64,000 bases of DNA, taken from contig JAHJQN010000007.1 of the NCBI GenBank assembly GCA_018819225.1, forward strand, positions 109,456-173,455. The letters run 5' to 3'. This document shows, in pieces, positions 58,275 through 63,847 of the stretch. Under the pieces are notes generated by a model, which had not been told where the DNA came from, did no database searches, and saw only the letters and a program-made list of their open reading frames with translations. Origin of the DNA: Candidatus Micrarchaeota archaeon (GTDB lineage Archaea; Micrarchaeota; Micrarchaeia; Norongarragalinales; SBBD01). Within the stretch, counting starts at the first letter, position 1, and every line of letters begins with the position of its first letter. A program made the translations under genes and the position numbers.

Positions 58275-58547
58275 ATGATCGAAGAAGAATTGATTCACTG
58301 GTTCGTTGACGAGAAGGAGAAGAAGCACCGCAGTGCGTTGCGCATCGAGTCCATTCCCCCGACGTTAAACAAGGGGTATCCCCGCGATGGCATCATCACG
58401 CTTCGCATCATGAACGGCATCGGCGCGATTGGATTCAAATGTTCTCCGGATGAAGCGCTCAAGTTGAGTACGCAACTCTTGACCGTTGCCAAGGAACAAC
58501 TGCAGAAAAAGAGGAGGCTCTGGAACGAGCGCGATGAAACACGCTAA
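58275..58547 (+). CDS. Hypothetical protein
   Basis: GAGG SD, 90 aa, host-like codon usage. Confidence 0.65.
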   Translation: MIEEELIHWFVDEKEKKHRSALRIESIPPTLNKGYPRDGIITLRIMNGIGAIGFKCSPDEALKLSTQLLTVAKEQLQKKRRLWNERDETR

Positions 58548-59509
58548 GTTCTTTCCACTAATGGCCGGCGCCGCTCCGGAATCCTCGCGATTCCCTTCAA
58601 TGAATCATCGGCAATAACGTGAGCCATTTTTCTTGCTCCTTCGTGTTTAAGGACTCCGTGGAGTTGTCGCGCCATTTCTTCAATGAACGCGCCTTTGATT
58701 CCCCAACGCGCTTCCAAATTTCGTCGAATCTCGGACTCGGTGTTCCAGTGCGCCAAATTCTGCATGAGTGTTTGGTCTTGCTGATGCGCGATGTGAAAGC
58801 GCTGATAATACGTTTTCCTTGATAAGCGCAGTCTTCGAGACAAGCCCATTTTTTTCAAGTAAAAGGGGGCGGTAAGCCGTCCGTTCAGGAAGGTGACTGT
58901 CGCCAGATACCGTCGGACAAAATTCGCTCGATCATTGAATTCTTCCAAACGCCTGAATTGTTCTGCGTTGACACGGAAATGAATCGCGTTCGCGCTCGGG
59001 GGTTCCAATCGTTGTTTCCATTCGTCGTGAATCACTAGTGATGCGGGAATACGGAGGACTTCCGTGATGCTGGCTCGTCCTTCTGCGCTCGACGGATGCT
59101 CCAATTGTTTGATGCCCACCTGCCGAATCCCTTGTTCGAACTCTTTAGCATCTAATGGAAACATGGCCGAGTGGAACACTTTCCCTTTTGGAGTGGAGTA
59201 TTCCCCTTTCTTCATTTTTCTCGGATCCCGGTAGTGCGTGCGTTCCAATTGAATGTACGCGACTTGGCGAGGATTTTCCGCGTTAACGAGTCCGATTCGA
59301 TGATACGGCGAATTCCGAATCCATTTTTTGGCTCTCCTCCGAAATAAATGTCTTGAAATGGGTTCTCGCATCCGCGCCCATGCGCCGCCCGCTTCTTTTC
59401 TAAGCGTTTGAGGCGTTTTTTGTCCATAGAGAGCGGGAAGCAACACTCGTTCAACGAGTTCTTCCGGGCTTTTCGTCTTCTCTAACGTGCGAAAGAACGA
59501 TTCCGCCAT
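58544..59509 (-). CDS. Hypothetical Arg-rich orphan protein
   Basis: ~321 aa basic ORF; ATG 59509 avoids overlap with the upstream ATPase. Confidence 0.65.
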   Translation of the reverse strand: MAESFFRTLEKTKSPEELVERVLLPALYGQKTPQTLRKEAGGAWARMREPISRHLFRRRAKKWIRNSPYHRIGLVNAENPRQVAYIQLERTHYRDPRKMKKGEYSTPKGKVFHSAMFPLDAKEFEQGIRQVGIKQLEHPSSAEGRASITEVLRIPASLVIHDEWKQRLEPPSANAIHFRVNAEQFRRLEEFNDRANFVRRYLATVTFLNGRLTAPFYLKKMGLSRRLRLSRKTYYQRFHIAHQQDQTLMQNLAHWNTESEIRRNLEARWGIKGAFIEEMARQLHGVLKHEGARKMAHVIADDSLKGIARIPERRRPLVERT

Positions 59510-59549
59510 AACTCCAGACCTGCGATCATTGATATTATTAATCCGTTGT

Positions 59550-61091
59550 TCACAGGAACGCTTCTCCGGCCTCCGCTTCCGAAACCGCTTCCGAGATCTT
59601 TTCCTCTTCCTCAAACGCTTTCGACAGCTCTTCCAGCGAGGTCCCCCCGGCGGCTTTCTGGCTCTTTCGCTCGCGCACTTTCAAGAACACGGGATAGCTC
59701 ACCGCTTCTCCAATCAACACGCCTTCCCCCGTCTTCAACGTCGTGATCTGTCCGGTCGTCGCCGAATCAATGTTCTCGCAGCTCTCTTCAATATGTTTCA
59801 AGTCGTACGGATTCGTGACGCGCATAATCAGGAACGAATTGCATTGGGATAAGGCGGTCGTGCTCAGTTTCACGGGCCGCTGCGATACCAAGCACAAGGA
59901 CGCGCCAAACTTTCTTCCTTCCCTTGCCACGGTTTCGATGACGCTGCGCGAAATCGCGCTTCTCCGCTCCACTTTTTCCGGCGCAAAATTGTGCGCTTCT
60001 TCCACGAGAAGCAAGTACGGCGGGAGCTCGCCTTGCCGTCTCAAATTGAACATTTTTCTGCATAAGTACGCGACGAGCATCTGCTTCTTCTTCATGTTAA
60101 TAATACTTGAAAAATCAAAAACAAGGAGTTTTCCGGGCTTCAGCGAGCGCTTCAAGTGCGGCGCATCGTGCACGCCCACGATTCGGTAACTACTCAACTC
60201 AGATAACCATGCGAGCAGCGCTTGCTTGGAGTTGTCCCGGATTTCGGACGCGGAAACGGCTTGAATCAAGTCCTTCATTGAAAAGGCTTCTTCCTTTTCC
60301 TTGTAGTCCTTGCGCACTTTTTTCAGAACCGGTGCCAAATCCCTCAGTTGAGCGGGCGACATGTCCGGCAGGAATTCGCCGAGGAGCTGCGTCGTCAGCC
60401 TTCGAGCTGCTATCTTGATCTTATCCCCCGGAACCACTTCCACTTGATTCGCGAAATCCGGATTTCTTCTTCGATCCGCAAAGCACGCGTATTCGCCGTG
60501 CATGTCAATCACGGCTATTGCGAGACGGCCTTGGTCTTTCTGGCGCGATAACAGTTCTTCAATCAGCACCGCTGCCGAATAGGATTTGCCGGCCCCGCTT
60601 TGCGCCAGCAATGCCAAATGCTTTTGGAACAGTTTCGTCAGGTTCAGCTTGACCTCGACATTATGCTGAAATAGTTTGCCGACCCGCAGACCCTGTTCCT
60701 CGAAACCCAGGAATTTTATTAACACGCTATCCTCGCATCCCTGAACTTTGGTACCGGGAGCCGGAGGATAGGCCACGCGTTTCAAGGTTCCTCCATCATA
60801 TGCTCCCAACACGTGACAATCCGCTACGGCAAACTCCCATTCCCCTGCGGGAAAGTGTTCGAGGAATGTGCTCTGGTAATCATTCTTTTCATACTCGGAA
60901 ATGCTTTCCGCATGCTCGAAATACCGATTCGAGCGCACGATGTCGCGAACAAAGCCGACGAGCAATCCGTCTTCTCCTTTCAATTGCACGTACCGTCCCT
61001 TGCGCACGATGGATGGATCCGAGATCACGAACGAGAAACGCGTCGTCGTAGGGGTTTCCTGCGTCGCGATGACCGTACCGTATTCCTGCAT
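59550..61091 (-). CDS. HerA-like ATPase/helicase (HAS barrel + DUF87)
   Basis: HLALLAQSGAGKS, VIDMHGEY, VEEAHNFAP, AREGRKFG, SQRP, SQCN. Confidence 0.9.
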   Translation of the reverse strand: MQEYGTVIATQETPTTTRFSFVISDPSIVRKGRYVQLKGEDGLLVGFVRDIVRSNRYFEHAESISEYEKNDYQSTFLEHFPAGEWEFAVADCHVLGAYDGGTLKRVAYPPAPGTKVQGCEDSVLIKFLGFEEQGLRVGKLFQHNVEVKLNLTKLFQKHLALLAQSGAGKSYSAAVLIEELLSRQKDQGRLAIAVIDMHGEYACFADRRRNPDFANQVEVVPGDKIKIAARRLTTQLLGEFLPDMSPAQLRDLAPVLKKVRKDYKEKEEAFSMKDLIQAVSASEIRDNSKQALLAWLSELSSYRIVGVHDAPHLKRSLKPGKLLVFDFSSIINMKKKQMLVAYLCRKMFNLRRQGELPPYLLLVEEAHNFAPEKVERRSAISRSVIETVAREGRKFGASLCLVSQRPVKLSTTALSQCNSFLIMRVTNPYDLKHIEESCENIDSATTGQITTLKTGEGVLIGEAVSYPVFLKVRERKSQKAAGGTSLEELSKAFEEEEKISEAVSEAEAGEAFL

Positions 61092-61171: not shown

Positions 61172-61753
61172 TTATGACGGTTTTTCCATTAACAGAAACA
61201 CTTTGCGCTTTCTGGGATTGTCGGCACTGTCGATTTGAATAGCGACTCGGAATCCTTGCGCCTTGAACGTCTGGCCCGTCCCGTACATCTCTTCCTCGCT
61301 CTCCGGATACAGCTGCACGACCGCCTTCCCTTTGGGTTTCAGAACGCGCGCAAACTCTTTCGCGACTTGCGGACGCTCGTTTAACGGCACCCATTGAAGC
61401 GCCGAAATGGATACAACGGCATCGAATCGTTGGTCGGGAAAAGGGATCTGGCGCAAGTCCCCGTGTTTGACCCGAAACCCTTTACGTTTCGCTACGGCGA
61501 GCATTTCTTTCGAGAGATCGAATCCTTCGGCGTCATACCCGACTTGATGCAGCACCAACATTCCGAAACCGGTTCCGCATCCCGCATCCAACACGCGGCT
61601 TTTCAGAGGGATCTTCGCCAGCTCGAGAGCGCGCATCAAAATCTTTTTCTGGATTCGCTCCATTCCGGGTTTCTCGTAATGCTCCGTTTGCCCGTAAAAC
61701 GCTTCCGCATTCGTTTCCTGTTCCGGCCTTTTTCCTTTCACTTTCCATCCCAT
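61172..61753 (-). CDS. Bud23/WBSCR22-like class I SAM methyltransferase
   Basis: RPE...AFY, IQ....RALEL, LDAGCGTG, FDAVVSISALQW, VVQLYPES, GF....D..NPRKRKVFL. Confidence 0.8.
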   Translation of the reverse strand: MGWKVKGKRPEQETNAEAFYGQTEHYEKPGMERIQKKILMRALELAKIPLKSRVLDAGCGTGFGMLVLHQVGYDAEGFDLSKEMLAVAKRKGFRVKHGDLRQIPFPDQRFDAVVSISALQWVPLNERPQVAKEFARVLKPKGKAVVQLYPESEEEMYGTGQTFKAQGFRVAIQIDSADNPRKRKVFLLMEKPS

Positions 61754-61792
61754 ACCAAACGCCTTTAAATCTCTCTACTGTAACGCGTAATC

Positions 61793-63622: not shown

Positions 63623-63847
63623 TTAGCTCCCTTTCTTCTTGAAACCCATCTTTTCCCTGACTTCATTTATGGGTTTTCCACAATCTGAACAGCCGTTTAG
63701 TATAATGTATTCGTCTTCATGGTGGGTGCTGTAAGTGCTACTTTGTCCACTTCCCCGCGACCTGCCTACTCCAGTATATGCTGGTCGGTGAAACGCTTTA
63801 ATCGTCTGTTTCTGGCAAAACGGGCAGTAAAGGATTGTTTCAGGCAT
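63623..63847 (-). CDS. Small zinc-finger protein
   Basis: CPFC...CSDC; AT-rich coding sequence. Confidence 0.7.
   Translation of the reverse strand: MPETILYCPFCQKQTIKAFHRPAYTGVGRSRGSGQSSTYSTHHEDEYIILNGCSDCGKPINEVREKMGFKKKGS

Follow-up and report, generated by a model that had tools for sequence, protein, structure and literature searches.

A tail-less Bud23-family methyltransferase in a Micrarchaeota genome that apparently lacks Trm112

A 193-residue protein encoded by a Candidatus Micrarchaeota archaeon is almost certainly a member of the Bud23/WBSCR22 family of methyltransferases. Its gene lies in a DNA stretch of 64,000 nucleotides, termed the window. Bud23-Trm112 makes m7G1575 in 18S rRNA, and is generally regarded, also in the literature, as a 40S biogenesis factor restricted to eukaryotes; new here is a tail-less archaeal Bud23, apparently without Trm112. 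We propose, with a probability of about 0.6, that the protein methylates the N7 of the 16S rRNA guanine equivalent to yeast G1575 as a stand-alone enzyme. In the proposed mechanism, this minimal archaeal Bud23/WBSCR22, a class I SAM-dependent enzyme, would transfer a methyl group to the N7 of a universally conserved guanine of the 16S rRNA head (GGAAU element), which corresponds to E. coli G1338 and yeast G1575 and lies on the ridge that separates the P site from the E site. In analogy to eukaryotes, the substrate would be a late small-subunit precursor, a timing that is expected because the eukaryotic enzyme clashes with the mature subunit. The enzyme would work with neither a basic tail nor a Trm112 activator, and with a more polar β3 edge.

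The gene is an intact open reading frame (ORF) that starts with ATG and ends with TAA, and the position given in the preliminary description agrees exactly with the ORF list and the translation (Table 1). The protein is composed of the methyltransferase domain alone: it stops three residues past the last strand of the AlphaFold2 (AF2) model and lacks the basic C-terminal WBS_methylT tail (PF12589), which spans ~70-80 residues in eukaryotes. The compact archaeal form that the preliminary description had anticipated is thus borne out by the lack of a PF12589 match. As this tail is absent from all archaeal members of the family, we treat it as a eukaryotic addition and not as a family-defining feature. 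Against Pfam, the 193-residue protein matches solely Methyltransf_11/25 (Methyltransf_11, E 2e-23), and no model in the NCBIfam scan scored above its equivalog cut-off.

Table 1. Features of the Bud23-family gene, in window coordinates
Feature	Position	Strand	Evidence
Bud23-family class I SAM-dependent methyltransferase, complete CDS (P0001)	61172..61753	(-)	ORF list, Pfam, PDB, AF2, Foldseek
N-terminal motif RPEQETNAEAFY, residues 9-20	61694..61729	(-)	aligns to yeast RPEELAPPEIFY
SAM-binding motif I VLDAGCGTG, residues 54-62	61568..61594	(-)	conservation in family alignment
β3 edge strand and next loop RVKHGDLRQIPF, residues 94-105	61439..61474	(-)	AF2 β3 = residues 95-97
Family-specific motif SISALQW after β4, residues 115-121	61391..61411	(-)	family alignment
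Family-specific motif QLYP on β5, residues 147-150	61304..61315	(-)	family alignment

The likeness to Bud23 runs over the whole length of the domain and is far above chance. In a phmmer search of PDB sequences, yeast and human Bud23 took the first four places among distinct sequences, aligned to query residues 6/9-189. Yeast Bud23 (4qtt_B) matched with an E-value of 3.1e-20 (query 9-189 against chain residues 3-199) and human BUD23 with E ~1e-17, up to 2e-17, compared to E 1e-14 over residues 50-149 only for the first non-Bud23 structure. Such a likeness beyond the SAM motifs had been put forward in the preliminary description on the basis of five peptide pairs, every one of which is found in the HMMER alignment to 4qtt_B: RPEQETNAEAFY/RPEELAPPEIFY, IQKKILMRALEL/IQAKMTLRALEL, FDAVVSISALQW/FDAAISISAIQW, GKAVVQLYPES/GKFVAQFYPKN and NPRKRKVFLL/SKKNKKYYLV.

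The AF2 model, calculated with 30 homologues, has a seven-stranded topology, with a pLDDT of 93.7 and a pTM of 0.89. A Foldseek search of this model against the PDB placed Bud23 at all of ranks 1-8 (yeast 4QTT/4QTU, human 6G4W and 7WT entries), with TM-scores of 0.78-0.88 and an RMSD of 1.5-2.6 Å, compared to a TM-score of 0.64 for the next match. Compared to yeast Bud23 and human BUD23/WBSCR22 (18S rRNA guanine1575/1639-N7-methyltransferase, K19306; PDB 4QTT, 4QTU, 6G4W and 7WTT), the protein has ~30% identity at an RMSD of ~1.5 Å. The two methyltransferase domains are alike from the RPE..FY segment through to the final strand, which reads KRKVFL in the window protein and KKNKKYYL in yeast Bud23.

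At the N-terminus, RPEQETNAEAFY is the counterpart of the RPE...FY segment of yeast and human Bud23, in which R9 and P10 are invariant in our alignment A1. Generic methyltransferases do not align across this segment, either in the PDB sequence search or in the profile search, and we infer that it forms a lid that folds over the active site. Downstream of SAM motif I, an acidic residue, D79, closes β2; together with D56, G58, G60 and G62, it is kept in 98-100% of the 86 family members aligned, 11 of them eukaryotic, and the SAM site is intact. Outside the SAM motifs, Q35, S115, S117, Q120, W121, Q147, Y149 and P150 are common to 10-11 of the 11 eukaryotic Bud23 proteins: S117, Q120, W121, Q147, Y149 and P150 occur in all 11, and S115 in 10. 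The residues S115, S117, Q120 and W121 are also kept in all DPANN and Asgard type-1 rows of the alignment. Both the SAM motifs and the set Q35/SxS/QW/QxYP are identical to those of eukaryotic Bud23. Judged by conservation, these residues make up a Bud23-type pocket with a putative role in guanine contact, of which SISALQW is presumably a part.

Profile searches, reciprocal searches and phylogeny lead to the same assignment. With a profile built from the archaeal proteins, full-length matches to eukaryotic Bud23 reached 143-167 bits, compared to at most 85 bits for generic Methyltransf_11 proteins, which matched over the core only. In the reverse direction, five diverse eukaryotic Bud23 domains each retrieved our ORF as the best match in its own genome (phmmer, E 1e-20 to 2.5e-23), with the next genes at E 1e-7 to 1e-10. 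When 1.8 billion cluster representatives were searched exhaustively, eukaryotic proteins of 270-350 residues were recovered over the full domain, and the PF12589 tail domain is present in two of the proteins recovered (P0186 and P0237). In a collection of 5.8 billion proteins, the homologues are from Micrarchaeota at 45-62% identity, followed by other DPANN and then by Asgard archaea at ~37%.

Two trees were calculated with IQ-TREE, a quick one of 98 rows and a careful one of 67 rows under LG+C20+F+G4. The Bud23 family, consisting of DPANN, Asgard and eukaryotic members, separates from generic methyltransferases with a support of 98 (quick tree) and 97/96 (careful tree). Within the family, eukaryotic Bud23 is monophyletic (100/99), the eukaryote-type Asgard proteins form a group of their own (100/95), and the window protein falls within a Micrarchaeota clade (99/93), beside a Micrarchaeota metagenome-assembled genome (MAG) and near a Norongarragalinales MAG. 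Judged from these trees, a recent transfer of the gene from eukaryotes is excluded. The backbone is poorly supported (38/86 for eukaryotes plus Asgard), and we therefore make no claim on vertical descent versus transfer between DPANN and Asgard. A divergent Asgard paralogue was tried as the root of the family and rejected, as it is placed within the family itself, on a long and weakly supported branch. The preliminary description had named reciprocal best matches, HMM comparison and phylogeny as ways to check its assignment, all of which group the ORF with Bud23; the placement among BioC/UbiE-like enzymes that it had set against the assignment was not seen.

Relatives were collected by scanning one genome per GTDB species with the pattern [IVA][IV]SISALQW, which yielded 115 relatives. 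Among the best 80 of these 115, the titles are DPANN (Micrarchaeota, Iainarchaeota, Aenigmatarchaeota and 'Nanobdellati'), Asgard, or merely 'archaeon'. A sample of the phylum contained the gene in six of seven genomes of the same order and in none of ~93 from other orders. The gene is conserved across its order, with 22 of 31 genomes carrying it, including 10 of 10 other genomes of its own family. Its absence from nine of the 31 genomes and from the ~93 of other orders indicates that it is dispensable; the gene is locally conserved yet dispensable.

The closest comparison outside DPANN is the eukaryote-type Bud23 of Asgard archaea (Promethearchaeota, Hod-, Hermod- and Odinarchaeota; ~210 residues), which shares the pocket motifs SISALQW and QFYP, is also tail-less, and has an identity of ~35-38% to the window protein. 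It differs in its separate clade, in hydrophobic residues at positions 96 and 53 and a cysteine at 101, in the presence of Trm112 in the genome, and in a neighbouring gene for ribosomal protein S25e. The S25e gene adjoins it in 52 of 52 loci, which lends modest, independent support to a ribosomal role of the family. A gene for a RagA/Gtr1-like GTPase also lies nearby in 49 of these 52 loci (L036-L092, e.g. L085:1298-1597 and L075:983-1915). The Trm112 proteins encoded in Asgard genomes are 207-211 residues long (L093:1075-1698 and L094:254-889) and carry ~120 extra residues that separate the two zinc-knuckle halves, an insertion that exceeds the helical one of eukaryotic Trm112 in size.

In five Asgard genomes, a eukaryotic query detected the copy already in our set at E 1e-27 to 1e-30 and a weaker second copy at E 1e-12 to 1e-16. 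This second copy (~220 residues; L109-L113) is matched by the profile over its full length at 114-122 bits; however, its pocket is changed, as ISISSYNF replaces SISALQW and EFYP replaces QFYP, and its stem branch in the tree is long. The window protein belongs to the eukaryote type and not to this divergent paralogue.

On the side of the substrate, the 16S rRNA gene of the same genome contains GCTGGAATCCCTAGTAATCG, which we take to be the element, conserved universally, that includes the counterpart of E. coli G1338 and yeast G1575; the target sequence GGAAUCCCUAGUAAUCG is present in the gene. To our knowledge, no DPANN or Asgard rRNA has been mapped for m7G. A true Bud23-family enzyme could act on another target, either a different guanine of 16S or 23S rRNA or a tRNA, which we consider unlikely. 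The family has already diversified, as seen from the fast-evolving Asgard paralogue with its altered pocket, and the eukaryotic tail, which helps to bind pre-ribosomes, is absent here; yet at each pocket position that is invariant in the family, the window protein has the residue of the eukaryote type, and it retains the N-terminal RPE..FY segment as well. Moreover, no m7G has been found at the G1575-equivalent position of archaeal 16S rRNA (PMC6144793), a report that is to be weighed against the universally conserved target sequence in the organism's own 16S gene. Ribosome biogenesis in yeast and human needs the Bud23 protein and not its catalysis (PMC5372719), so the conserved role could be structural.

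The 16S gene itself (contig C3) is 1553 nt long, compared to the 1478 positions of the model. Its 3' end (L002:2990-3053) reads AAGTCGTAAGAACGTTGCGACCTCGGATCTGTGAGGATT, with an altered sequence in the loop of helix 45, and is devoid of the canonical GGATCACCTCC anti-Shine-Dalgarno tail.

Eukaryotic Bud23 is insoluble and unstable without Trm112, which it requires for both stability and activity (PMC5372719). The preliminary description had proposed to look for Trm112 in the genome, an assembly of 1.37 Mb in eight contigs that is ~90% complete; the search was extended to 30 relatives of the order, and Trm112 was detected in none of these 31 genomes, 22 of which carry the Bud23 gene. In the organism's own genome, the sole match to the Pfam model PF03966 is a TFIIB zinc ribbon, a regular expression for the C-terminal signature of Trm112 gave one unrelated match, and phmmer queries with two Trm112 proteins from Asgard archaea, and with the micrarchaeal Trm112 domain that is fused to a methyltransferase in a sister genus, gave no match. 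In the 30 relatives, PF03966 found no free-standing Trm112; its matches are TFIIB-like proteins, a fusion to another methyltransferase and, at a borderline score, a membrane-anchored zinc ribbon. Applied to four archaeal control genomes, PF03966 picked up Trm112 in every one.

Two small zinc-ribbon proteins were considered as partners and rejected. The borderline PF03966 match of relative G018 (119 residues) has a transmembrane tail and lacks the C-terminal motif of Trm112. It has an orthologue on contig C8 of the genome studied here (orthologue of L012:1471-1830), and proteins of this type, of ~105-119 residues, are conserved in Micrarchaeota and consist of a zinc ribbon (CxxC...CxxC) at the N-terminus, a linker rich in Pro and Gly, and a transmembrane helix at the C-terminus. 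The other candidate, a 74-residue zinc-ribbon ORF in the window (63623-63847), has no significant family match, and its place next to the methyltransferase gene is not conserved in relatives. Within the order, the one Trm112-type domain detected (PF03966, E 1e-7) is part of a 360-residue protein of a sister genus in the same family (L003:1498-2580), in which an N-terminal Trm112-like zinc ribbon is fused to a class I methyltransferase; our genome has a homologue of this methyltransferase without the Trm112-like domain. It also encodes an Mtq2-type glutamine methyltransferase (contig C7:67491-68042, L099; TIGR00537, 127 bits against a cut-off of 87). Mtq2 is a classic client of Trm112, and its retention in a genome with no detected Trm112 fits two readings: such enzymes may in general do without Trm112 here, or an activator may have gone undetected. 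The lineage thus appears to run Trm112-type methyltransferases either without Trm112 or with an activator that we do not recognise.

In the solved Trm112-methyltransferase complexes, the core of the interface is formed by strand β3 of the methyltransferase and the LPF loop that follows it (PMC6144793). The window protein has K96 and R101 in this region, and Micrarchaeota mostly have K96, which lies in β3, R101 and K/R53 at the corresponding and adjacent places, compared to I, C and L in Asgard archaea and to V/C/A, G and an aromatic residue or L in eukaryotes. The β3 edge of the micrarchaeal proteins is more polar than in the lineages with Trm112, and these charged residues, mapped by secondary structure and motif, would suit an exposed edge. 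Hvo_0019 of Haloferax volcanii (PDB 6F5Z) represents the class I methyltransferases of this kind that depend on Trm112 (PMC6144793). It shares the class I fold and an archaeal host with the window protein; however, the two match over the core only (E 2.7e-4, TM-score 0.75), and Hvo_0019 lacks the Bud23-specific ends and motifs. A prediction of a homodimer, with two copies and a 48-row DPANN alignment, scored 0.00, which speaks neither for nor against self-association.

The enzyme might alternatively form a heterodimer with a Trm112-like activator that our searches missed, either because it is very divergent, or lies in the unassembled 10% of the genome, or is a non-homologous zinc ribbon; we give this little credence. 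A divergent Trm112 of ~60 residues could escape detection in a genome that is ~90% complete, and the insolubility and instability of the eukaryotic enzyme alone (PMC5372719) would favour such a partner, as would the retention of Mtq2; yet three independent searches of the genome found no Trm112, and a model that works in all four controls found no free-standing copy in the 30 relatives. The small zinc-ribbon ORFs, one in the window and one membrane-anchored on contig C8, could be taken as candidates, but the C-terminal signature of Trm112 is missing from both, and in relatives neither shows linkage to the gene. Finally, the IPF loop after β3 is conserved, and by motif only it can be likened to the LPF of the hydrophobic interface core of Hvo_0019-Trm112, to which the charged residues on β3 and its flanks in Micrarchaeota stand opposed.

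That the protein is an ordinary BioC/UbiE-like Methyltransf_11 enzyme for small molecules or lipids, sharing only the fold with Bud23, is very improbable: Pfam and NCBIfam name generic families alone with none over its equivalog cut-off, and database records label some relatives UbiE or trans-aconitate methyltransferase, but BioC (TIGR02072, 64 bits against a cut-off of 185) and UbiE/MenG (49 bits against 158) match over the core only, the likeness to Bud23 passes the Rossmann core at both ends and outranks all generic enzymes by sequence and fold, and the profile gap, the tree split and the Bud23-specific pocket residues all stand against it.

A Bud23 in archaea is at odds with the specialist literature, according to which archaea have no Bud23 (PMC6144793). 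A survey of archaeal ribosome biogenesis factors does not discuss Bud23 (PMC8481954), and its phylostratigraphic analysis places BUD23 at LUCA with loose filters and at LECA with the strictest filter (PMC8481954, supplement). In the literature that we searched, no paper was found that treats Bud23 and Asgard archaea together. The name itself is not new for these proteins, which limits the novelty: the JGI pipeline, with its automatic KEGG-based annotation, already calls several relatives '18S rRNA (guanine1575-N7)-methyltransferase' (K19306).

An orthologue group that spans DPANN and Asgard archaea implies that Bud23 originated earlier than eukaryotes. Tentatively, and with more doubt than confidence, one may picture a stand-alone archaeal origin of Bud23, in which the Micrarchaeota of this order would keep a Trm112-independent, tail-less state together with an m7G on the P-site ridge, a mark not known from prokaryotic 16S rRNA, and in which both the dependence on Trm112 and the tail would have been added later, in the line from Asgard archaea to eukaryotes. 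The host here is a prokaryote, whereas the eukaryotic enzyme works with the Dhr1 helicase and U3 snoRNA (PMC5372719). An archaeal Bud23 predicts a specific modification of 16S rRNA that can be mapped. In addition, the micrarchaeal enzyme may fold and act without Trm112, and if so would make a useful tool for biochemistry, given the insolubility of the eukaryotic enzyme alone.

The neighbouring genes encode a HerA/DUF87 ATPase, a DUF192 protein and a cupin-type glucose-6-phosphate isomerase (Pfam), none of which points to the ribosome. Among DPANN, this neighbourhood is common to close kin only, and therefore we draw no functional link from gene context. An Rfam scan of the 64-kb window gave no match. 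In the segment 61754-61815 of the window, a gap of 39 bp separates the methyltransferase gene from the divergently oriented DUF192 gene. A TTTAAA box (61764-61769) precedes the ATG of DUF192 by 24 nt, as is typical for leaderless transcripts. The sequence TTTTTATAA, located ~50 nt upstream and inside DUF192, may serve the methyltransferase gene. The HerA/DUF87 ATPase has a HAS-barrel (window 59550-61091, (-) strand) and lies upstream of an overlapping 356-residue ORF (58544-59614, (-) strand), which has no Pfam match and may be a divergent NurA-like partner of HerA.
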